Shown here: positions 397 through 13,739 of the stretch, one piece after another | How positions within the stretch are numbered: the stretch's first letter is position 1 | Layout: each line of letters starts with the position of its first letter | Origin: a bacterium | GTDB lineage: Bacteria; Patescibacteriota; UBA1384; JBDRDK01 | Reading direction: 5' to 3' | Assembly: GCA_043820855.1 (NCBI GenBank) | Contig: JBDRDK010000039.1 | Coordinates: forward strand, 1-34,669 | Length of the DNA stretch: 34,669 nt | Position numbers and translations under genes: made by a program | Notes under the pieces: generated by a model | The model's database searches: none | Told to the model about the DNA's origin: nothing | The model's input: only the letters and a program-made list of their open reading frames with translations

Positions 397-1704
397 ATGG
401 TAGCCCAGTTCGCTTAGAATTTTTTTGATAATATCTCTATCGCTCCAAGGTATTTTTTGCTCGCCTACAACTATACATTCTTCAGCACCTTTGCCAGTCA
501 CAACCACTAAGTCACCTCCACCAGCTGCAGTCAGGGCTTTACGTAAAGCTTCTTCACGACTTGAGATTTTGAAATAATCTAATCCTAATTTCAGTTTCTT
601 TTCTTTGCGACCTTTTGGCACACCGCTTGCAACCTCTTCGATAATAGTGTCTGGATCTTCGGTGTATGGATCTTCATTAGTTACAAACACTAGATTTGCA
701 AATCTACCAGCCAGAGCTCCAAGTATAGGTCGCTTAGTTTTGTCTCTATCTCCGCAAGCACCAAGCACTGCGATAATTCGATTAGGTCGTAAATTACTTA
801 GAGTTTCATATAGTTTTTTTAAAGCATCAGGAGTGTGGGCATAATCTACGATTACTGTAAAGGGCTGACCAGCTTCGATTTTCTCAACTCTACCAGGTAC
901 TAGTTTTACTTTTTCTAAACCTTTTTTACAAATACTCAAAGGTACACCTTGGGACAAACCAGTAGCAATAGCAGCTAATGCGTTTTGCACATTAAATCTT
1001 CCTGGTAAATTTAGCTTGATCTCCTGATCACCTTTGGCACTAGTCACATAAAACTGGCTGTATGAAGCTGTATAATTGGTTTTTTTAGTGCTGACATCTC
1101 CACCCAGTATTCCGTATTTTAATTTATAATCAGCGTCAAATTTGTTGAAATATGAAAAGCTAGGATCGTCTCTATTTACAATAATTACTTTTTGCACTCC
1201 GTCTTTGTGTAGAGATTTTTTCAAACCAGAAAAAAGCAATGCTTTGGCACGTTTGTATTCATCCATTGTCTTGTGGTAATCAAGATGCTCTTGACTAACA
1301 TTAGTTAAGACAGCTACATCAAATGGAATTCCCCAAACTCTGTGCTGAACCAAAGCATGAGAGGTAACCTCAATTATTGCGTACTGACATTTGGCTTTGT
1401 TCATCTCAGCCATGAGAGAAAGAAGCTTAAATGGGGACTGGGTAGTCATCTTGGTTTCATTGACTCTATCAACCCCAGCAATACTGATATTTATAGTACT
1501 CACTAGCCCGACTTTGAAACCAGCTTCTTCAAGTATTGCTTTGGCGAGATTTGCAGTTGTTGTTTTGCCGTTAGTACCAGTGATCCCAATCACGATCATT
1601 TTCTTACCCGGAAATCCATAGCGAATATTAGCCAAAATAGCTTGCAGTTTATGATACAACAAGATTACCTCAGGTGATAAAATTTTACGCAAGTATTGTT
1701 TCAT
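385..1704 (-). CDS. murE: UDP-N-acetylmuramoyl-tripeptide synthetase (Mur ligase)
   Basis: GITGTNGKTT P-loop, EVTSH, EHLDYH, DYAHTPD, GDRDKTKR, VTGKGAE. The specificity motif reads EDPY rather than DNPR. Confidence 0.92.
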   Translation of the reverse strand: MKQYLRKILSPEVILLYHKLQAILANIRYGFPGKKMIVIGITGTNGKTTTANLAKAILEEAGFKVGLVSTINISIAGVDRVNETKMTTQSPFKLLSLMAEMNKAKCQYAIIEVTSHALVQHRVWGIPFDVAVLTNVSQEHLDYHKTMDEYKRAKALLFSGLKKSLHKDGVQKVIIVNRDDPSFSYFNKFDADYKLKYGILGGDVSTKKTNYTASYSQFYVTSAKGDQEIKLNLPGRFNVQNALAAIATGLSQGVPLSICKKGLEKVKLVPGRVEKIEAGQPFTVIVDYAHTPDALKKLYETLSNLRPNRIIAVLGACGDRDKTKRPILGALAGRFANLVFVTNEDPYTEDPDTIIEEVASGVPKGRKEKKLKLGLDYFKISSREEALRKALTAAGGGDLVVVTGKGAEECIVVGEQKIPWSDRDIIKKILSELGYHKNK

Positions 1705-1879: not shown

Positions 1880-2806
1880 TTACAGTCCTCTTCGCTGTCT
1901 CTCAATAATTTTATATGTTTTGTAAAGCCAAGGTGCAAAAATGAGATCATAGCTTCCGATTAGCTCTATGTGTCTACCACCGAATTTTTCTTTAAATTCT
2001 GTTATGCCGTCGTATTTATGTTTTTTTACATTTTTTGGGCTTACAGCTAAAAGGTCATAGATTGTGCAATTCTTTCTCTTTGCATCTTTGATTATGTGCC
2101 AGTGCAAAAGATATGGAGCCATCAAGTTTCGGTGTTCACTAGATGATGCACCGTACAAATATGTGGCTGTACTACCCTGAAAAGTTGCAATAATAGCTGC
2201 CAAAGGTTGGTGTTCAAAATATGCGAGATAAACTTCGCCAATCTTTTTCTTTTCAAAAGTTGCTAACATTTTTTGAAAATATATTTTTGCTCTAGGTGTG
2301 AATTTGTCGCGTTTACTGGTTTCAACAAATAGTTTGTAGAAATTTTTGAGTTCACGAGTAGAAATACCAGATGTAATCTTAATACCTTTTTTCTCAGCTA
2401 AGCTCACATTGTATCTACCTTTTGGTTTCATTTTTTTAAGAATTTTTTCCTGTGTGTCTGAGATATCAAGCATGTTTCTTGAGCTAGGTTGAAGCTCTTC
2501 AAAGCTTTTGATAAATTTATTTTTCTCTAAAAAGCTATTAGTTTGCTTGTCTGTAGATTCAACAATAGGTTCAATTTTCAAAAATATCGCATTTGTACGC
2601 TTGGCTAATTCTTTGACTTTATCTATATCTAATTCAAGCAAAGCTTCTTTGGTTACTTCCGGAATATATAATACAGATCTACCAAGTGCAATCTTTTTTT
2701 GCAAAATCCAAACCTTGCTAATTTGGTGCTGTCTCCAACCAAAATTAGCTTTAAAATCACTCCATTCTTTGGTTTGTAAAACGCTGTCGTAATTATCTAA
2801 ATTCAT
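1880..2806 (-). CDS. FemAB/FemX-family lipid II peptide-bridge aminoacyltransferase
   Basis: LQTKEW N-terminal motif, MKPKGRYNV, YLYGASS, APYLLHW, GITEFKEKFGG. Confidence 0.88.
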   Translation of the reverse strand: MNLDNYDSVLQTKEWSDFKANFGWRQHQISKVWILQKKIALGRSVLYIPEVTKEALLELDIDKVKELAKRTNAIFLKIEPIVESTDKQTNSFLEKNKFIKSFEELQPSSRNMLDISDTQEKILKKMKPKGRYNVSLAEKKGIKITSGISTRELKNFYKLFVETSKRDKFTPRAKIYFQKMLATFEKKKIGEVYLAYFEHQPLAAIIATFQGSTATYLYGASSSEHRNLMAPYLLHWHIIKDAKRKNCTIYDLLAVSPKNVKKHKYDGITEFKEKFGGRHIELIGSYDLIFAPWLYKTYKIIERQRRGL

Positions 2807-3013: not shown

Positions 3014-4108
3014 ATGTATATCCTAGCAATAGAAACATCTTGTGATGAAACTAGCGCTGCAATTGTAGATCAAACAGGCAGTGTGTTGGCTGTAGAAACC
3101 ATATCGCAGATCCCTATCCACAAAAAATACGGTGGGGTCGTGCCAGAGGTTGCATCCCGCAATCACACGCTTGTGATACTGCCGACTATTCAAAAGGTAA
3201 TTAAAAAAGTGTTCAAAACAGATGACTTAAAGATCGGTTTGCATAAAATAGACGCTCTAGCTGTAACAGTGGGCCCTGGTCTTATCGGGTCACTTTTGGT
3301 TGGAGTAAACACAGTTAAAACATTGGGGTACCTAAGTGGTAAGAAAATCTTTGGTGTTAATCATCTTGAAGGCCACATATACGCAAATTGGATCAAGTCA
3401 TCAGTTACTGGTTATCAGTTATCAGTTACTGGTAAGCAAAAACTAATCACCAATCACCAATCACCAATAACTAACATTGAGTTTCCTGCTTTGGTATTGA
3501 TTGTATCTGGCGGGCACACTAGTTTGATCAAGATGCTCGACCACGGCAGATATCAAACTCTTGGACAAACCTTAGATGACGCAGCTGGAGAAGCTTTTGA
3601 TAAAGTTGCCAAACTCTTGGACCTACCCTACCCAGGCGGACCAGAGATTGAAAAACGTGCAAAACTGGGCAACCCCGAAACTTATAACTTACCCATACCA
3701 ATGGAAAAATCTCAAGACCTAAATTTTAGTTTTTCTGGACTGAAAACAGCTGTACTTTATCTTGTGAAAAAAACTAAAGATATTCAGAAAGATGATCTAT
3801 GCAAAAACTTTCAAGATGTATTAATTAAATCTCTACTGCAAAAGACATCAAAAGCTACCCGAATTCATAAGCCCAAATCAATCCTTTTGTCTGGTGGGGT
3901 AATTAATAATAAAGCTTTGAGGCAGAGCTTCAAGTCTTATTTTCAAAAACATTTCAAAGATATTAATTTGTACATGCCCGATCTATTATTTTGTACTGAT
4001 AACGCAGCTATGATCGGTGCTGCAGCTCAGTATCAATCCTTGAAATCATCAGGTAAAAACTGGTATGATATTGATGTTGATCCAAACGCCAAATTAGCAA
4101 ATGGCTAA
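3014..4108 (+). CDS. tsaD: tRNA N6-threonylcarbamoyladenosine transferase TsaD with a repeat-derived insert
   Basis: ILAIETSCDET, GGVVPEVASRNH, NHLEGH, VSGGHT, DDAAGEAFDK, FSFSGLKT, CTDNAAMI. Confidence 0.96.
   Translation: MYILAIETSCDETSAAIVDQTGSVLAVETISQIPIHKKYGGVVPEVASRNHTLVILPTIQKVIKKVFKTDDLKIGLHKIDALAVTVGPGLIGSLLVGVNTVKTLGYLSGKKIFGVNHLEGHIYANWIKSSVTGYQLSVTGKQKLITNHQSPITNIEFPALVLIVSGGHTSLIKMLDHGRYQTLGQTLDDAAGEAFDKVAKLLDLPYPGGPEIEKRAKLGNPETYNLPIPMEKSQDLNFSFSGLKTAVLYLVKKTKDIQKDDLCKNFQDVLIKSLLQKTSKATRIHKPKSILLSGGVINNKALRQSFKSYFQKHFKDINLYMPDLLFCTDNAAMIGAAAQYQSLKSSGKNWYDIDVDPNAKLANG
3394..3474. repeat. Inverted heptamer array, in frame inside tsaD
   Basis: tcagtta/ctggtta/tcagtta/tcagtta/ctggtaa ... 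aaactaa/tcaccaa x3/taactaa. Confidence 0.9.
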
Positions 4109-4220
4109 TGGCATATGGCGAATGGCACATAGCAAATAGCAAATGGCATATAGCAAATGGCGAATGGCACATAGCAAATAGCAAATGGCATATAGAAAAT
4201 AGCAAATGGCATATAGAAAA
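4095..4220 (+). repeat. Tandem heptamer array, 18 units, consensus TRGCNNA
   Basis: Exact 7-bp period (tagcaaa, tggctaa, tggcata, tggcgaa, tggcaca...) with a higher-order 42-bp duplication. Contains the tsaD stop codon. Confidence 0.95.
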
Positions 4221-4234
4221 TGGGGAGTAATGAA

Positions 4235-6379
4235 ATGAAAAAATTATTTGACAAACAATTTGATGGACCATATAAGGCCAGTGAGTTTGAGCCGGAAATT
4301 TTGAAATTTTGGGAAGAGAAAAAATACAGTCAAGCTGAGAATAATTCCAGAAAAGAAAAATTTGTAATCTCTACACCTCCACCAAATGTCACAGGCGAAT
4401 TGCATATCGGTCATATCACGCCTTTTACTTTTATTGATATATATGGCAGGAAAAACAGAATGGCAGGAAAAAATGTCCTTCTTGTACCCGGCACTGATCA
4501 CGCTGCGATCGCTGCTCAAAATGTAGTAGAAAAAGAATTGAAGAAAAAAGGTATAACCAAAGAAAAGCTTGGTCGTGAAAAATTCCAAGAAGAGATGTGG
4601 GAATTTATCAAGGAATACAGGCCTCGTATTGAAAAACAGATTAAAATGGTTGGAGTAAGTGTTGACTGGTCTCGAAATCACTTTACTATGGACCCTGACC
4701 TGACTAATGCAGTACACGAAGCATTTCAACGCTTAAAAAAAGATAAACTAATTTATCAGGACGAGTATCTAATTAATTGGTGTCCTAGATGTGGTACTGC
4801 TCTTTCTGATGATGAAGTTGAGCACAAAGAACAAACAGCAAAGCTGTATACTTTTAAATATTCAAAAGATTTTCCAATAAGTATTGCTACAACCAGGCCA
4901 GAAACTAAACTCGGGGACACAGCCGTAGCTGTAAATCCAGAAGATAAAAAATATAAGAAATATATTGGACAAACTTTTGATGTTGATTTTCTTGATGTAA
5001 AGCTGAATATCAAGATCATCGGCGACCGTGAAGTTGATCCAAAATTTGGTACAGGTGCTGTGGGCATCACACCTGCTCACTCTTTAGCTGATTGGCGTAT
5101 TGCCAAAAGTAATAACCTAAAAATCATTCCAGTTATTGGTCAAAATACTAGAATCTTGAAAGGTTTCGGAGAATTTTCTGAAATGAAAATAGGTGATGCA
5201 CGAAACAGAATCGTAGAACTACTAAAAGAGAAAAAACTTCTAGAAAAAGTTGAAGATATAAAAAACAATCTCTCAATATGCTATCGCTGCGAAGCACTTA
5301 TCGAACCCCTTCCTTCCAAACAATGGTTTATTAAAATTGCGCCTTTAGCAAAGTTAGCTCGTGATGCAGTTAAAAAGGGTGAAATCAAAATCATTCCAAA
5401 AAACTTCGAAAAAGTATATTTTAATTGGATGGATAATATTCATGATTGGTGTATTTCCAGACAGCTGTGGTGGGGACACGAACTTCCAGAAAAAGACAGT
5501 AAGGATGTGCTGGATACTTGGTTTTCATCAGCTTTATGGCCTTTTGCCACTCTTGGCTGGCCCAAAGAAACTTCTGATTATAAAAACTTTTATCCAACCA
5601 GTATGATGATTACTGGCTCGGATATTCTCTTTTTCTGGGTTGCCCGAATGATTATGTTTGGCAAGTATTTCACAGGTAAAGCTCCTTTTGAAACAGTGCT
5701 TATGCACGGCCTAATTCTAGACAAAGACGGTAAAAAGATGAGCAAATCCCGTGGCAATGTGATTAATCCAATCCCAATGATTGAACTATACGGATCAGAT
5801 GCTTTGCGTATGGCAGTAATTGTTGGCAACACGCTTGGTAACGATATAGCGCTTGGTGAGGATAAGATAAGAGCATATCGAAACTTCTCAAATAAAATAT
5901 GGAACGCAACTCGATTTGTAATTAGTAATTTAAGTGATTTTGATCCCTCGCTTACACCCGGGACAAGTCCCAAGATGGACAAAGAATCAGAAAAATACTT
6001 GGAAAATCTTAATAAAATTATTGCTGAAACTAATGAGCATTTCGCAAAAAAACGCATTGCTTTGGGTGCTGAAAAACTGTATGAGTTTTTCTGGCATTAT
6101 TTCTGTGATAAATGCATAGAAGAATTAAAACCGAAATTGAGCACAGCGAAACCCCGTACCGACGACACTAAGTTGTCTGGTGCGCGGGCCAATCAAGAAA
6201 AACTCGCTGCTCAACACACCCTATATATAATGCTCATAAATTCCTTAAAGCTTTTACACCCATATATACCTTTTGTAACTGAAGCTTGTTGGCAAAAGCT
6301 TAAAAAAAACATTAAGAATAATAACTTAGAAGAAAGTATAATGATCGCCAAATGGCCAAAGCAAATAGAAGTTAAGTGA
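4235..6379 (+). CDS. valS: Valine--tRNA ligase (compact form)
   Basis: PPPNVTGELHIGH, PGTDHA, ATTRPET, DWCISRQLWWGH, DVLDTWFSS, KMSKS. Start placed at ATG 4235 after GGGGAG rather than 4220, which lies at the end of the repeat. Confidence 0.95.
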   Translation: MKKLFDKQFDGPYKASEFEPEILKFWEEKKYSQAENNSRKEKFVISTPPPNVTGELHIGHITPFTFIDIYGRKNRMAGKNVLLVPGTDHAAIAAQNVVEKELKKKGITKEKLGREKFQEEMWEFIKEYRPRIEKQIKMVGVSVDWSRNHFTMDPDLTNAVHEAFQRLKKDKLIYQDEYLINWCPRCGTALSDDEVEHKEQTAKLYTFKYSKDFPISIATTRPETKLGDTAVAVNPEDKKYKKYIGQTFDVDFLDVKLNIKIIGDREVDPKFGTGAVGITPAHSLADWRIAKSNNLKIIPVIGQNTRILKGFGEFSEMKIGDARNRIVELLKEKKLLEKVEDIKNNLSICYRCEALIEPLPSKQWFIKIAPLAKLARDAVKKGEIKIIPKNFEKVYFNWMDNIHDWCISRQLWWGHELPEKDSKDVLDTWFSSALWPFATLGWPKETSDYKNFYPTSMMITGSDILFFWVARMIMFGKYFTGKAPFETVLMHGLILDKDGKKMSKSRGNVINPIPMIELYGSDALRMAVIVGNTLGNDIALGEDKIRAYRNFSNKIWNATRFVISNLSDFDPSLTPGTSPKMDKESEKYLENLNKIIAETNEHFAKKRIALGAEKLYEFFWHYFCDKCIEELKPKLSTAKPRTDDTKLSGARANQEKLAAQHTLYIMLINSLKLLHPYIPFVTEACWQKLKKNIKNNNLEESIMIAKWPKQIEVK
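5942..5967 (-). repeat. REP-like hairpin (family A), in frame in valS
   Basis: ccctcgcttacacccgggacaag resembles the reverse complement of 7430-7454 (cccttcgattacactcagggcagg). Confidence 0.6.
6152..6188. repeat. GC-rich hairpin, in frame in valS
   Basis: cgtacc-gacgac-actaa-gttgtc-t-ggtgcg stem-loop within AT-rich coding sequence; encodes PRTDDTKLSGAR. Confidence 0.6.
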
Positions 6380-6404
6380 ATTAGTTACTAAGTTATTAAG
6401 TGGG
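6373..6404 (+). repeat. Octamer array, left arm flanking the four-helix-bundle gene
   Basis: taagtgaa/ttagttac/taagttat/taagtggg; includes the valS TGA. Confidence 0.7.
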
Positions 6405-6408
6405 AGGG

Positions 6409-6777
6409 ATGGAAAAACGTAAAAAAATTAAAACTTTTCAGGACCTTCGAGTATGGCAAAAGTCACATAAACTTGCATTAATAATCTATAAAATAACTAC
6501 GAAACTCCCTAAACACGAACAATATATTTTAATCAATCAAATTCGAAGATCTGCAATTTCAATACCAGCAAATATAGCCGAAGGTATGGGCAGAAACACT
6601 AAAGCAGAACTCAAGAACTTTCTTTATAATGCAAGAGGTTCTTTGCAAGAAACAATATACTTTTTAATACTCATAAAAGATTTAAATTATATAGATTCAG
6701 AAGAATATGAGAAAATATCTAAGCGTTATTTAGGATCAGGGAAAGCAATAAATATATTTCTGAAATCATTAAAGTAA
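6409..6777 (+). CDS. Four helix bundle protein (23S rRNA IVP / TIGR02436-like, Avd-like fold)
   Basis: FQDLRVWQKSH, PKHEQY, QIRRSAISIPANIAEG, ARGSLQET. Start is ATG 6409 or GTG 6400. Confidence 0.92.
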   Translation: MEKRKKIKTFQDLRVWQKSHKLALIIYKITTKLPKHEQYILINQIRRSAISIPANIAEGMGRNTKAELKNFLYNARGSLQETIYFLILIKDLNYIDSEEYEKISKRYLGSGKAINIFLKSLK

Positions 6778-6778
6778 T

Positions 6779-6810
6779 ATCTCTTAATAACTAAAACACT
6801 TATTAACTAT
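6779..6810 (-). repeat. Octamer array, right (inverted) arm flanking the four-helix-bundle gene
   Basis: atctctta/ataactaa/aacactta/ttaactat; cttaataact (6783-6792) is the exact reverse complement of agttattaag (6391-6400). Confidence 0.7.
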
Positions 6811-7846
6811 GTCTACTAGTAAATATAAATATCTTATTCGAATCCTAATGTGGGTAATTAGTATTATTGGTATTTTTGTAATAATAACTGTCCTGGTGTG
6901 GTTTAGTACTGGTAGTGTTCGTAAAACTGTAAGTCAAGATTATCAGAAAGACGCAGAAAAACTTATTGAAAATCATGAATATGACGACGCTATACTAGCT
7001 TTGAATAAAGCTGGTTTTTTTGATCCTTCAAATGATCAAGCTTGGTATGAGCTCGGTAAAATACATCGTAGTTTTTATGAATATACTCTATCTAGTAAAA
7101 GCTTCCTCAGATCTTGGAAAGCAAAAGAAGATGATAAATACTTGATAGCTTATATTGAAAGCTTACTAAAAAATGATGAGAGCGATATAGCTGAAGAATT
7201 TCTTGTGAGCATTGATGAATCTGATCTCTCAAATAGTTTGTTGTGGCTTATAAAAGCAGAAGATCAAAAACTCTCAGACGCAAAAAAATATGCGAACAAA
7301 ATAAAACGAAAATCACAAAAAAATTATTTTTTGTCATTAACCAATTTACTTGAAGAAGATTATCGGAAATTTGCAGAAACTTTAAAAAATATTCAAATCC
7401 ATAAATCAAATTCGGAGACACCTGATTTTGCCTGCCCTGAGTGTAATCGAAGGGTAATCTGGAAATTATACCCGGATTCAAATACTTTATCATCTCTAAA
7501 ATCAGCAAATAATAAAATATTAAATAGCCAAATCGCAGAATCTAAATCTCTATATTCTTATCAAGCTTTTGCCGAACTTGGACTGGGATCGATTGTGATA
7601 GAACCGTTAAAGGATTTAATTGCGGACAATTTAAATTATCGAGATGCTTGCATAGTGCTGGGAGAGATTTATTATCTTGAGGAAAATTATACAACTGCTC
7701 TTGAAAAACTAAAAAGCGCTGAAAAACTGGACTACAACTATCTGCCTACACTACAACTTCTGTATAAAACCTACCTGGCCCTAGATCAAGCAGATAAAGT
7801 TGAAGATTACAATCTACGCATTGAAAAACTGCAATTTGAAAACTAG
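6809..7846 (+). CDS. Membrane-anchored TPR-repeat protein
   Basis: N-terminal TM helix; TPR-like helices (AWYELGKIH, ACIVLGEIYY...ALEKLKSAEKLD). Confidence 0.8.
   Translation: MSTSKYKYLIRILMWVISIIGIFVIITVLVWFSTGSVRKTVSQDYQKDAEKLIENHEYDDAILALNKAGFFDPSNDQAWYELGKIHRSFYEYTLSSKSFLRSWKAKEDDKYLIAYIESLLKNDESDIAEEFLVSIDESDLSNSLLWLIKAEDQKLSDAKKYANKIKRKSQKNYFLSLTNLLEEDYRKFAETLKNIQIHKSNSETPDFACPECNRRVIWKLYPDSNTLSSLKSANNKILNSQIAESKSLYSYQAFAELGLGSIVIEPLKDLIADNLNYRDACIVLGEIYYLEENYTTALEKLKSAEKLDYNYLPTLQLLYKTYLALDQADKVEDYNLRIEKLQFEN
7430..7454 (+). repeat. REP-like hairpin (family A), in frame in the TPR gene
   Basis: gcctgccctgagtgtaatcgaaggg; related to 30834-30857, 31117-31135 and 5942-5967. Confidence 0.7.
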
Positions 7847-7887
7847 ATTACAATTATCTGCCTACACTCAAATTGCTTGCCAAAACC
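7839..7887 (+). pseudogene. Diverged relic copy of a TPR gene 3' segment
   Basis: 38/49 nt identical to 7723-7771; KLDYNYLPTLKLLAKT vs KLDYNYLPTLQLLYKT. Confidence 0.7.
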
Positions 7888-7904
7888 CATTACTTACCAA
7901 AACC

Positions 7905-7942
7905 TATTTTAACACAAAAAGAACGATCGGTCTTTACGTGTT
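7905..7942. repeat. 38-bp direct repeat, copy 1 (palindromic, with leftward extended -10)
   Basis: tattttaacacaaaaagaacgatcggtctttacgtgtt; 36/38 identical to 8533-8570. Confidence 0.92.
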
Positions 7943-7953
7943 GCGTATACCCG

Positions 7954-8490
7954 TTATTGTTTTAAGTCAAATAGCTTTTTGATTTTTTCTTCCCCCGAAA
8001 TATTCGAGCTTTCAATAAATACTAGTTCTTCCGTCACTGCTTTATCGAAAAGGTCTGCTAAATCTTCAAAATTGATTTTATACGGTATAATCCAAATGCT
8101 TTTTTGTAATTGCTTAAAACCTAAATAAAATAAATATTCTCTTAACTGTTTTCTGCTGTTTCTTTTTGTTTCTGGAATATCAAATGCGATAATTCTCCAC
8201 TTCCCATCCCATTTTGGCGACTTATATTGTAATTTTCCTGAACTAGCTTTTAATAATTCAAGTTTACCTTTAAGGGTTAGATAAAATTTATCTTTTTTTT
8301 GAATGATTAGTTCTTTTTTAATTAAATCTTTGAAGGAGCGCCTATAGCTTGATTCGAATTTAAATTTTGGCTTAACTCGATATCCTTTATAGGGATAAGT
8401 TATAATATCTTCAAAAAAATCTATTCCATCTATAAATTTATTCGTTAGTTCTTCTGCCAAATAATATAAGATCTTATTTTTACTTTTCAT
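7954..8490 (-). CDS. PaaX-like protein: wHTH plus Cas2-like/PaaX middle domain
   Basis: LIKKELI..FYLTLKG winged helix, then WDGKWRIIAFDIPE..R..LR..L..LGF.QLQKSIWI. Confidence 0.85.
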   Translation of the reverse strand: MKSKNKILYYLAEELTNKFIDGIDFFEDIITYPYKGYRVKPKFKFESSYRRSFKDLIKKELIIQKKDKFYLTLKGKLELLKASSGKLQYKSPKWDGKWRIIAFDIPETKRNSRKQLREYLFYLGFKQLQKSIWIIPYKINFEDLADLFDKAVTEELVFIESSNISGEEKIKKLFDLKQ

Positions 8491-8491
8491 G

Positions 8492-8533
8492 TTTATTTGT
8501 ATTCTTATCTGTTTTATTTGTATTCTTATCTGT
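8492..8533. repeat. 21-bp perfect tandem duplication in the PaaX-like leader
   Basis: tttatttgtattcttatctgt x2. Confidence 0.85.
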
Positions 8534-8570
8534 ATTCTAACACAAAAAGAACGATCGGTCTATACGTGTT
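8533..8570. repeat. 38-bp direct repeat, copy 2; overlaps the putative PaaX-like promoter
   Basis: tattctaacacaaaaagaacgatcggtctatacgtgtt; the minus strand gives TGtTAGAAT at 8534-8542. Confidence 0.92.
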
Positions 8571-8655
8571 AACTGTATGCTGTAAACTGTATAACGAATG
8601 ATTATTGTAATAATTTAAGATATTATAGATATTATAGAATAGACAGATTTGTTTA

Positions 8656-8664
8656 TGTTATAAT
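8656..8664 (+). promoter_or_regulatory. Extended -10 promoter of the T4SS-like operon
   Basis: TGtTATAAT ~90 nt upstream of ATG 8757. Confidence 0.6.
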
Positions 8665-8709
8665 TAAAACAAATCCACCGTGTGTGGCAGATATTGGAAT
8701 TTAACCAGC

Positions 8710-8746
8710 GTCCCGCTGAGCGGGACTTCCCGAGCTAGACTCGGGA
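8710..8746. repeat. Two adjacent GC-rich hairpins (REP-like) in the operon leader
   Basis: gtcccgc-tga-gcgggac and tcccgag-ctaga-ctcggga. Confidence 0.75.
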
Positions 8747-8756
8747 GTGAGGGGCG

Positions 8757-10220
8757 ATGAAAATAAAAAAACCAATTGTATATTACTTTATATTAAGTAT
8801 TATTTTTGTACTAGTCTTTAATCTTTTCTACTTCCAACCCTTAGAAGTTCGTGCTCTAGAAGGATGGCAAGATATTCGCTGTGATGAGCAAATTGATCAA
8901 TTCTCTTATGAAAACGCAGAATGTACTATACCGGTAAAATTTAGAGATCCAGAACAAGTTTCATTTCCAGATACTTGGAAACCAACAGTGAATGACTACG
9001 TTGGCGGAGGAACATTATTATTACCAGAAAGATTAAAAATCAGGACATCTTTAATGTGGAGGATATTTACTACAGATTTAATGAAGAATCTAGACGAAAA
9101 AATCCATGAAGCCAACTCTCTACCCATTGGTCTGAAGCTTTGTGCCCATGGATTTGAATACAAATTATCAGACGTATATTACAAGGTGTCTATTAACATC
9201 AACATTCTAGTCCCCGATGAAACTGCTGACGACCAAGGCTATGTATCTCCTACGGGTAATTATTACAGAAAGATATTTGAAGATAGCGGTAATACATATA
9301 TGAAGTTTTCTAATGAAGGTAGTATTTTAGATTGGGATACTTGGTTTAATATTTTCGAAACAGACAAAGATGCAGATGATTCGAACATCCAGTCGGACCC
9401 AACAACTCAAGAATTATGGCAAGAATTTAAAATTCCTAGAAATGCTCAACAAACAGATTATGTTGGAAATGGCGACCCATTATTATTTGCAAACTTTGAA
9501 GTACATGCTTTAGATGACATCAACTGTACCGGTTCAGACTGGAATTTTTTCCATGATGACATTATAGGTAACGGGATTATAGGTTCTGGCCCTATAAATC
9601 TTGGTGAAAGAAGTGAAAACACGATTCAAGCTCCAGGAATATCGTTGGAAATAAAGGATAAAAATACTGGTGAATTTAAGCCATTAAATGTAGGAGAAAA
9701 TCAAGGAGAATTTGCTAAGGAAATCAAAGTAAAGTTTACTCCGCTCGCAAATCAAGCAATTACTAACTATAGGCTGTGGTGGGAAAATGAAAGTTCTACT
9801 TCAGAACTACCAGAAGGAATTCATCATCCAACTAACCCGGAATATGTACTATACAAACAATCAACTCCTACAGTAAATCAGTTTACTGAGGAAAACAGTA
9901 AATATACAGCGATCTTTAATGAGGATTTTGAACTCCCTAACCAGGTTTGTTTCTTGCTTGACTTTGTCCCACCTGAAGCAGATCAAAGAGCGTCACCTTC
10001 TACCAGATGTGTCAGATACAATGATGATGGCACGGTATTAACATATTCACCTGGATACGATTCGCCAATAGGTGACCCGGGTGGGACTTTTGAAGATAGA
10101 TCGTGCAACCTCATAGACGGACCTATTGAATATGTAGTGTGTTTATTAGCCCAATTTGCCATTAATTTAATGGAAGTAGCAATTCAAGGTATTTTAATGC
10201 CAGCAATAATTGCTTCTTAA
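8757..10220 (+). CDS. Exported/membrane hypothetical protein, first gene of the T4SS-like operon
   Basis: N-terminal signal/TM, acidic extracellular region with paired Cys, hydrophobic C-terminus. Confidence 0.7.
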   Translation: MKIKKPIVYYFILSIIFVLVFNLFYFQPLEVRALEGWQDIRCDEQIDQFSYENAECTIPVKFRDPEQVSFPDTWKPTVNDYVGGGTLLLPERLKIRTSLMWRIFTTDLMKNLDEKIHEANSLPIGLKLCAHGFEYKLSDVYYKVSININILVPDETADDQGYVSPTGNYYRKIFEDSGNTYMKFSNEGSILDWDTWFNIFETDKDADDSNIQSDPTTQELWQEFKIPRNAQQTDYVGNGDPLLFANFEVHALDDINCTGSDWNFFHDDIIGNGIIGSGPINLGERSENTIQAPGISLEIKDKNTGEFKPLNVGENQGEFAKEIKVKFTPLANQAITNYRLWWENESSTSELPEGIHHPTNPEYVLYKQSTPTVNQFTEENSKYTAIFNEDFELPNQVCFLLDFVPPEADQRASPSTRCVRYNDDGTVLTYSPGYDSPIGDPGGTFEDRSCNLIDGPIEYVVCLLAQFAINLMEVAIQGILMPAIIAS

Positions 10221-13640: not shown

Positions 13641-13710
13641 GAGTTATTGGTTATTAGTAACTAGTTATTAGAAACAAAATACGAGTTCAAGTGGCCAAGT
13701 TATTGAGTAC
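13641..13710. repeat. Degenerate heptamer array
   Basis: gagttat/tggttat/tagtaac/tagttat/tagaaac, followed by caagttat/tgagtaca. Confidence 0.7.
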
Positions 13711-13739
13711 AAATAATTGAAAATTTAATTTAAAACACC

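Follow-up and report, generated by a model that had tools for sequence, protein, structure and literature searches.

Between a TPR-protein gene (6809-7846) and an open reading frame (ORF) like those of type IV secretion systems (T4SS) (8757-10220), contig JBDRDK010000039.1 of the patescibacterial assembly GCA_043820855.1 carries a small gene for a 178-amino-acid (aa) protein, enclosed by two copies of a palindromic repeat (Table 1). The whole contig of 34,669 nucleotides is referred to here as the window (contig C39 of its genome), and the arrangement of palindrome, gene and palindrome as the cassette. Both neighbours lie on the plus strand, confirming the statement of the initial annotation that the gene is antisense to each of them. 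The same annotation had described two 38-bp palindromic direct repeats, 36 of 38 positions identical and 628 bp apart, and a repeat search of the window recovered this pair (95% identity, 628 bp from start to start).

The 32-nt core of the repeat occurs exactly twice in the window, with no occurrence in 100 dinucleotide shuffles at up to three mismatches, and at the same tolerance exactly twice in the whole genome (746 kb in 64 contigs, 94% complete). A search with the pattern of the 16-nt half-site was equally restrictive, its matches being confined genome-wide to the four arms of the two C39 copies. Both cores are imperfect palindromes centred on CGATCG, and the genome holds 38 palindromes of that strength compared with 5-10 in shuffled contigs.

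Table 1. Features of the cassette and its immediate surroundings in the window (position 1 is the first nucleotide of the contig)
Feature	Position	Strand	Remarks
178-aa gene, ATG start	7954-8490	-	PF20803 PaaX_M ("central Cas2-like domain"), E 5e-20
5'-flank repeat copy	8533-8570		Core 8539-8570 with 12/16 arm pairs around the centre CGATCG; probably an operator, which overlaps the promoter of the gene
3'-flank repeat copy	7905-7942		Core 7911-7942, 13/16 arm pairs; begins 12 nt past the stop codon
-10-like TGTTAAAAT in the 3'-flank copy	7914-7906	-	Directed away from the gene
Promoter-like site of the gene	8534-8562	-	TAGACC-17-TAGAAT with TG; 9/12 matches
Two 21-nt tandem repeats in the leader	8483-8524	-	Triplicate motif AGAATACA
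Cassette-holding stretch, TPR gene to T4SS-like ORF	7847-8756		910 bp
Copy of TPR-gene bases 7723-7771 (49 nt, 78%)	7839-7887	+	Directly left of the cassette, after the TPR stop codon

Layout of the cassette across the genome and the phylum

Four paralogs of the gene are present in the genome, on contigs C39, C28, C53 and C63, the latter three encoding proteins 68, 49 and 48% identical to that of the window; a six-frame hidden Markov model (HMM) search of the genome gave no fifth paralog or pseudogene (next best E 0.45). Each of the four is enclosed by a palindrome pair of its own, with a spacing of 598-628 bp; the palindromes have common centres (CGATCG or CGGCCG) and differing arms. Homologs were found in 102 of the 401 sampled genomes of the phylum, and at least 580 relatives are present among species representatives. 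The layout was examined at 106 loci, comprising the four own copies, 29 from the phylum sample and 73 of 80 from the species representatives; of the seven dropped, one had no complete ORF, four were duplicates and two lay at contig ends. A bracketing repeat pair was accepted if it outscored the best of 20-30 shuffles by 4 or more, and a copy was counted as palindromic if fixed 14-nt arms formed at least 10 of 14 pairs, the 99th percentile of the background being 10. An X-drop palindrome score of at least 9 had been tried and proved too strict (39 loci), and the fixed arms with a measured background were used instead.

A repeat pair brackets the ORF at 86 of the 106 loci. Both copies are palindromic in 58 of these pairs, one copy in 18 and neither in 10. 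Among the 76 loci with at least one palindromic copy the arms differ, while the centre reads CG[AG][TC]CG in 51 and CTATAG in 10. The distance from centre to centre has a median of 638 bp, and the median gap between a centre and the coding region is 35 nt on the side of the first in-frame start and 34.5 nt on the side of the stop codon. Paired palindromes at homologs which vary with the paralog had been named beforehand as a check on the initial annotation, and they are present at all four own copies as well as in the wider family. Five other genomes hold 9-12 copies each, in single genomes of 0.8-1.5 Mb. When six copies were taken from each of these five genomes, every copy with a recognisable repeat carried its own.

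Lone palindromes of the same class are found at five places in the genome (C29:10437, C36:13561, C36:13695, C44:5972 and C17:1835). They are 4-8 of 32 positions removed from the nearest paired type. The number of such diverged sites is 0-2 per palindrome type at most, and the six-frame HMM search detected no fifth family gene or pseudogene accompanying them. At C36:13561 the 32-nt core is perfectly palindromic, and two symmetric pairs of changes set it apart from the C53 type. The two sites on C36 (13561-13592, C53-like, and 13695-13726, C28-like; positions 2561-2592 and 2695-2726 of locus L037) are 134 nt apart in a 550-bp gap flanked by a 372-aa ORF, which from its translation we take to be similar to the tRNA thiolase MnmA, and a 94-aa ORF, with no family gene or remnant nearby. 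At locus L142 of genome G350 the cassette palindrome (centre CTCGAG) has a third copy, paired at 14/14, on the far side of a divergent 164-aa ORF (814-1308, minus strand), which from its translation resembles YraN-type nucleases; the palindromes at 743-770 and 1371-1398 bracket this ORF, and the arrangement is conserved in G270, a genome of the same genus.

No relative of the cassette protein was found on viral contigs, and on plasmids only actinobacterial PaaX-like genes of less than 50% identity. Four family members (L046, L098, L058 and L095) come from assemblies labelled Acidoferrum, Verrucomicrobiota or Bdellovibrionales, two of which (L046 and L098) encode longer proteins of 261 aa on a long branch; these members may reflect mis-binning or transfer outside the candidate phyla radiation (CPR).

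Presence, absence and relocation

A metagenome scan yielded a single relative, contig L042, whose valS and TPR products are 84 and 71% identical to those of the window. The gene order in L042 is valS, TPR gene, a spacer of 73 bp, a 488-aa ORF and a TrbL-like gene, with neither the cassette nor a palindrome of the same class. The spacer between the TPR gene and the next ORF is 910 bp in the window versus 73 bp in L042. When the 73-bp spacer was aligned with positions 7840-8800 of the window the score was 38, against a mean of 32.5 and a maximum of 52 for shuffled sequences, and is not significant. Among 40 relatives (GTDB representatives, same class only) no homolog of the ORF at 8757-10220 was found, and therefore no orthologous site.

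A second comparison was offered by genomes G350 and G270, which hold nine copies and one copy respectively. Five of the nine G350 cassettes were compared with G270, leaving out L025 and three further copies, and three of the five sites are empty there. At L127 a stretch of 1,371 bp, comprising the cassette and a 141-aa ORF, is matched in G270 by only 33 unaligned bp, and there the stop codon is separated from the ATG of the next gene by 5 bp; at L137, 824 bp correspond to a direct junction; and at L147, 1,157 bp correspond to 52 bp. The cassette at L142 is common to both genomes at the same locus, and for L132 only the left flank has a match in G270. Empty sites, also named beforehand as a check, are in this way seen both for the window locus and for three of the five G350 cassettes. 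The initial annotation had further proposed that excision would leave one repeat behind, and this was not borne out. No palindrome at 11 or more of 14 pairs was found in the two empty-site stretches of G270 that were scanned, and no empty site retains a lone palindrome, which indicates that both palindromes go with the unit.

The inserted stretch at L127 lies directly upstream of what we take, from its translation, to be gatC; its 141-aa ORF (2192-2617, minus strand) is of unknown family, on the strand opposite to the cassette, and is followed by a GC-rich hairpin within the same stretch.

Relocation is seen in the pair L053 and L083, whose proteins are 85% identical. The two loci share 82% identity over 628 and 626 bp respectively, a homology which starts and stops at the outer edges of the palindromes. 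The palindromes lie as terminal repeats at both ends of the unit. Their right-hand neighbours are unrelated, presumably a DEAD-box-like and a GlyA-like protein as read from the translations. Four other close pairs (L009/L066, L060/L080, L101/L107 and L045/L067) are syntenic; the last of these had been considered as a second boundary case and was dropped, its right flank being syntenic at the protein level (57%). The behaviour of the cassette is that of an insertion/deletion unit: some related genomes have it and others lack it, and the genes beside it can be unrelated.

In a tree of 131 proteins (FastTree, unrooted, a quick method) the copies of one genome form clades, with support of 99 for the four own copies, 97 for the six sampled from G350 and 84 for the six from G339. 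The copy L142, which occurs in both G350 and G270, is placed outside four further G350 copies; for three of those four, the corresponding site in G270 is empty. The L142 orthologs of the two genomes have diverged to 75% nucleotide identity with their palindrome type unchanged, whereas other G350 copies of a similar divergence have different palindromes. Paralogs of the same genome thus cluster on the tree while carrying different palindromes.

The protein, its promoter and the nature of the palindromes

The 178-aa protein consists of an N-terminal winged-helix part (helix 46-58, wing 62-71) followed by a Cas2-like domain (98-178), in which D104, R113, Q129 and S131 are invariant. D104 corresponds to the beta-1 aspartate of Cas2; it is found in all 131 aligned family rows and aligns with the FDL of Cas2 6jhz. 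In Cas2 this aspartate is the metal-binding catalytic residue. A search with the AF2 model of the protein (pLDDT 79) in Foldseek ranked PaaX-like Rv0674 and E. coli PaaX (8a39) at the top, followed by many Cas2 chains, and the family profile matches PaaX 8a39 over both parts (E 4e-6) and Cas2 6jhz (E 0.003). The N-terminal winged helix-turn-helix (wHTH) and the WDGKWR motif are of the PaaX type, whereas the family retains the Cas2 motifs FDIPE and QKSVW at positions where E. coli PaaX has LLLS--EG and LAPSLM.

The protein does not qualify as PaaX or as Cas2 when curated cut-offs are applied. It scores 35.9 bits against the PaaX equivalog TIGR02277 (cut-off 264.55) and 22.6 bits against the Cas2 model TIGR01573 (cut-off 24.5), the latter being exceeded by the paralogs on C53 and C63 (27.9 and 27.5). 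The Cas2 models of PADLOC and NCBIfam match residues 98-134, and in these two collections the protein gave PaaX and Cas2 models only, together with one weak wHTH model in PADLOC. The N-terminal PaaX and PaaX_C families of Pfam gave no match at E <= 0.01, and the protein stops after the middle domain, so that it does not have the three-part architecture of PaaX. Neither Cas1 (PF01867) nor PaaA/PaaC (PF05138) was found in the 94%-complete genome, which agrees with the earlier remark that paa and cas genes are absent; the neighbours of the cassette are the TPR gene and T4SS-like genes.

The protein is predicted to form a homodimer. The prediction scored 0.51, against 0.00 for the best of three controls; among solved structures, 20 of 30 same-chain pairs and 1 of 23 single chains attain this mark. 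Its runs agreed in 100% of contacts, and the pLDDT of the partner is at least 63. The predicted interface lies in the Cas2-like domain (residues 100, 102-104, 128-132, 141 and 155-166), and the result may reflect the likeness of the protein to solved Cas2 and PaaX dimers. Divergence is uneven along the protein: over 436 pairs with 40-60% overall identity, the helix-plus-wing part is 34.5% identical versus 54.6% for the Cas2-like part.

As a separate observation, a 19-mer of strong hydrophobicity (Kyte-Doolittle of at least 1.6) stands at the N-terminus of 63 of 135 family proteins, a total that includes four duplicates; it often ends in A-P-G or A-P-N and resembles a membrane anchor. The four-member clade of the window protein has none, its best windows reaching 0.44-1.02.

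The initial annotation had assigned a promoter motif to each repeat. Both minus-strand motifs are present in the sequence, since on one side of the palindrome the repeat continues for exactly 6 nt, which are the -10 hexamer. The upstream copy was called as promoter-like, with the -35-like TAGACC (8562-8557) within the palindrome and the extended -10, TGTTAGAAT (8542-8534), at its gene-side edge. In contrast, the TGTTAAAAT of the downstream copy is accompanied by a -35 of only 3/6, and the promoter scan of the window did not call a promoter there. A TGnTAnAAT box lies at the gene-side edge of the upstream palindrome, or 5 nt beyond it, in three of the four own paralogs. In the C28 paralog TGCTAAAAT is followed by 6 nt and the ATG, a spacing which would result in a leaderless transcript; in C53 TGTTATAAT is followed by AAGAGG and the ATG; and C63 has weaker candidates. 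The tandem repeats in the leader of the window gene stretch the gap between palindrome and ATG to 43 nt, compared with 11 nt in the closest paralog.

Across the family, TGnTAnnnT begins at a distance of 5-45 nt from the upstream centre, on its 3' side in the direction of the gene, at 22 of 76 loci, versus 8, 7 and 4 of 76 at three control positions. The role of the upstream copy as promoter and operator is supported in this way both in the window and in the family. Outward firing of the downstream copy, another suggestion of the initial annotation, is not a family trait, the extended -10 being present there at 7 of 76 loci, a background level. The T4SS promoter which had been placed about 85 nt from the upstream copy was not confirmed, as no plus-strand promoter-like site was called within 8571-8756.

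The palindromes lie directly outside the coding region at both of its ends, and one mismatch of a window palindrome becomes a G-U pair on the sense strand, as might be expected if they acted as RNA or single-strand hairpins which stabilise the 5' and 3' ends of the mRNA or terminate it. We regard this as very improbable. The four hairpin RNAs of the window fold no better than shuffled sequences (-5.8 to -8.5 kcal/mol, z -0.96 to +0.51), neither copy has a T-run or a called intrinsic terminator, and the only Rfam match in the window is one tRNA, with none in the cassette region. Stem mismatches on the sense strand at the 76 loci comprise 83 G.T, 69 A.C and 249 others, and selection for an RNA stem, which would favour G.T, is not indicated, the counts showing no strand bias. 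Where the copies are asymmetric their orientation is direct at 18 loci and inverted at 6, and this mixture fits a symmetric double-stranded site. The evidence favours double-stranded DNA sites rather than RNA hairpins.

Interpretation of the cassette and its surroundings

The initial annotation had offered two readings, an autoregulatory operator pair or a minimal mobile cassette, and its interpretation is partly supported. On balance we consider it probable, if only slightly so, that the cassette is one of a phylum-wide family of self-contained units whose protein, as a homodimer, binds its own two palindromes and represses its own gene. The protein would combine a variable winged helix with a conserved Cas2-fold dimerisation core, and the homodimer would bind its own palindrome of about 32 nt, in this genome only at the two ends of its own gene. 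A fast-diverging winged helix beside a conserved core matches variable arms beside a conserved centre, from which we infer that the variable helices would read the private outer arms while the core would lie over the conserved CGRYCG centre. The upstream copy overlaps the -35 and the spacer of the extended -10 promoter, so that binding of the dimer would repress transcription of the gene itself, and the second copy would represent the other end of the unit. Binding, self-repression and the geometry of the dimer are all put forward here from sequence and structural models. With its sites only at the ends of its own gene, its multiplication within lineages and its entry into unrelated gene gaps, the cassette behaves like a selfish unit.

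Several findings weigh against this reading. The right edge of the indel in the window cannot be fixed, because the next ORF of the window is not alignable with that of L042. There is a single relocation pair among 135 loci, with a left flank of only 127 nt in L083, and no target-site duplication was seen at the junctions read (window, L053/L083 and L137/G270). A Pfam scan of the 178-aa protein gave no known transposase or recombinase domain and no HUH domain. No repeat pair was detected at 20 of the 106 loci, and the 10 pairs with neither copy palindromic fall below the threshold. The plain -10 hexamer has no fixed distance from the palindrome centre across the family, whose genomes are AT-rich, and weaker constraint alone could explain the faster divergence of the winged helix. 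Near-identical copies within one genome are lacking, the maxima being 65-80% aa identity (six sampled in each of five genomes) and 68% in the own genome, which gives no sign of very recent copying. Finally, L019 and L035 are 78% identical although their palindromes are entirely different, so that few substitutions would have had to alter the specificity greatly.

The cassette could instead be an autonomous minimal mobile element, its protein being a nuclease or recombinase which pairs the terminal palindromes and cuts or joins DNA there, in the manner of a transposase at its terminal repeats, with self-repression as a by-product like that of many insertion sequences. This is unlikely, although several findings speak for it: the genome has no cognate sites other than those at the two gene ends, presence varies between relatives, one relocation has a homology that stops at the outer palindrome edges, copies of the same genome cluster with the copy shared with G270 branching outside four other G350 copies, and the palindrome centre is conserved family-wide. 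Moreover the beta-1 aspartate is invariant in all 131 rows and lies with Q129 and S131 in the predicted dimer interface, whereas E. coli PaaX does not have it. However, target-site duplications and identical within-genome copies are missing among those sampled, viral contigs have no homolog and plasmids only distant actinobacterial PaaX-like genes, and the inserted stretches in the empty-site comparisons exceed the palindrome-to-palindrome distance by 58-186 nt; Cas2, moreover, is not known to act as a recombinase, and the nuclease activity it shows is weak and can be dispensed with in CRISPR adaptation, which also counts against such an element. More doubtful still is the idea of an ordinary, vertically inherited self-repressor whose two operators form a loop of about 630 bp and whose absences are due to gene loss only. 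The wHTH and PaaX-like ancestry, the overlap of operator and promoter, the predicted dimer and the synteny of close pairs (L009/L066, L060/L080, L101/L107 and L045/L067) would agree with it, but a repressor that targets only itself has no evident purpose, exact loss would be required at four sites, one of them restoring a 5-bp gap between genes, L053 and L083 lie beside unrelated genes, and copy numbers reach 9-12 per genome and differ as 9 versus 1 within one genus. To a similarly doubtful degree, the self-repressing cassette might be carried further, to a new class of minimal selfish element in which a wHTH-Cas2-fold protein recognises, represses and mobilises its own unit, the pair of protein and palindrome diverging after each duplication.

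There is also a small chance that the cassette is a portable switch for its neighbours, whose protein controls promoters at both ends, towards TPR/valS on one side and the T4SS-like operon on the other. The outward TGTTAAAAT of the downstream copy would fit this, as would the third palindrome of the same type at L142, which brackets a neighbouring ORF, and the -10 box inside the palindrome of some members (L045), so that both copies would carry it. Against it, the outward extended -10 is at background level (7/76), the neighbours vary from locus to locus without a conserved partner, and no plus-strand promoter-like site lies within 8571-8756. A remnant or variant of CRISPR adaptation, in the form of a Cas2 gene between two CRISPR-like repeats, is the least credible of these proposals. 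The repeats are of CRISPR-repeat size and partly palindromic, and two paralogs pass TIGR01573 (27.9 and 27.5 vs 24.5), but the genome has no detected Cas1, the window protein itself remains below that cut-off (22.6 vs 24.5) and has a wHTH and WDGKWR motif of the PaaX type, and there are only two repeats, the roughly 590 nt between them encoding the gene itself.

The cassette bears a partial resemblance to several known systems. PaaX is a phenylacetyl-CoA-responsive repressor of the paa genes which binds a palindromic operator as a dimer; the cassette protein shares with it the order of an N-terminal winged helix and a Cas2-like middle domain, the top Foldseek ranks of 8a39 and Rv0674 and the WDGKW motif. 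It differs in its length (178 aa versus 316), in lacking a PaaX_C match and in keeping the Cas2 motifs FDIPE/QKSVW, while its presumed sites bracket its own gene, and the gene occurs in multiple copies, varies in presence between relatives and is found without paa genes. With Cas2 (6jhz, 5zyf) and VapD-type proteins it has in common a ferredoxin-like fold, the beta-1 aspartate, the Q-S-V motif and a predicted dimer through that domain; unlike Cas2, it is fused to a winged helix, is without Cas1 and a CRISPR array, and is below the cas2 cut-off.

The REPtrons (REP/RAYT) offer a comparison in that a single-copy gene is flanked by imperfect palindromes with related lone palindromes elsewhere in the genome. 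The RAYT product is an HUH/Y1 transposase which is thought to recognise the flanking REP palindromes, of which there are hundreds. In contrast, the cassette protein has no HUH/Y1 domain, and there are 0-2 diverged lone sites per type and none for the C39 type. Many insertion sequences encode a transposase that binds the inverted repeats at their termini and represses the transposase promoter, which lies in one of the ends. The cassette likewise has cognate sites at both ends of a one-gene unit and a promoter in one end, is present or absent, and is sometimes relocated; however, each of its ends is a full palindrome, and neither target-site duplication, a transposase fold nor identical within-genome copies were seen. 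Cas2 homologs on mobile elements have been proposed, in one account, as possible toxin-like RNases (PMC3506569). In the literature searched, supplements being outside the search, no published description of a palindrome-bracketed wHTH-Cas2-fold cassette was found.

The family is large and unstudied, and its members are automatically named Cas2 or PaaX without meeting either definition. A multi-copy gene with only its own ends as recognisable targets needs explaining in genomes this small. If it is a selfish element, it would add to the few documented examples of spread within a genome in CPR bacteria; alternatively, it could be a new regulatory or chromosome-organising device. The many private pairs of protein and palindrome would, if real, form a natural orthogonal set of repressors and operators and a system in which to follow the divergence of specificity after duplication. 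Should the reading as a selfish class hold, Cas2-fold proteins that act on repeat-sized palindromes would exist outside CRISPR, which would bear on the origin of the Cas2 and palindromic-repeat part of CRISPR adaptation.

The surroundings of the cassette differ from those in L042 in other respects. The ORF at 8757-10220 (487 aa) and the ORF at 7064-8530 of L042 (488 aa) are of nearly equal length with no detectable similarity (best E 1.6), and the TrbL-like proteins of the two contigs are 34% identical; the ORF at 8757-10220 gives the impression of a T4SS-associated gene which has either been replaced or evolves very rapidly. Between valS and the TPR gene of the window, a plus-strand gene of 125 aa (6400-6777) belongs to the 23S rRNA intervening-sequence protein family (PF05635, E 2e-38). 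L042 lacks this gene, its valS (3935-6004) overlapping the TPR gene (5983-6990), which makes a second indel beside the cassette. The 49-nt copy of TPR-gene bases directly left of the cassette is possibly a local duplication tied to the insertion, and a similar-looking partial repeat of a flanking hairpin is found beside the insertion at L137. Two GC-rich hairpins at 8710-8745 (plus strand) lie directly upstream of the start of the ORF at 8757. The motif of the first, GTCCCGC-loop-GCGGGAC, is present at six genomic positions (C10, C14, C18, C39, C50 and C52) and constitutes a small dispersed hairpin repeat family.

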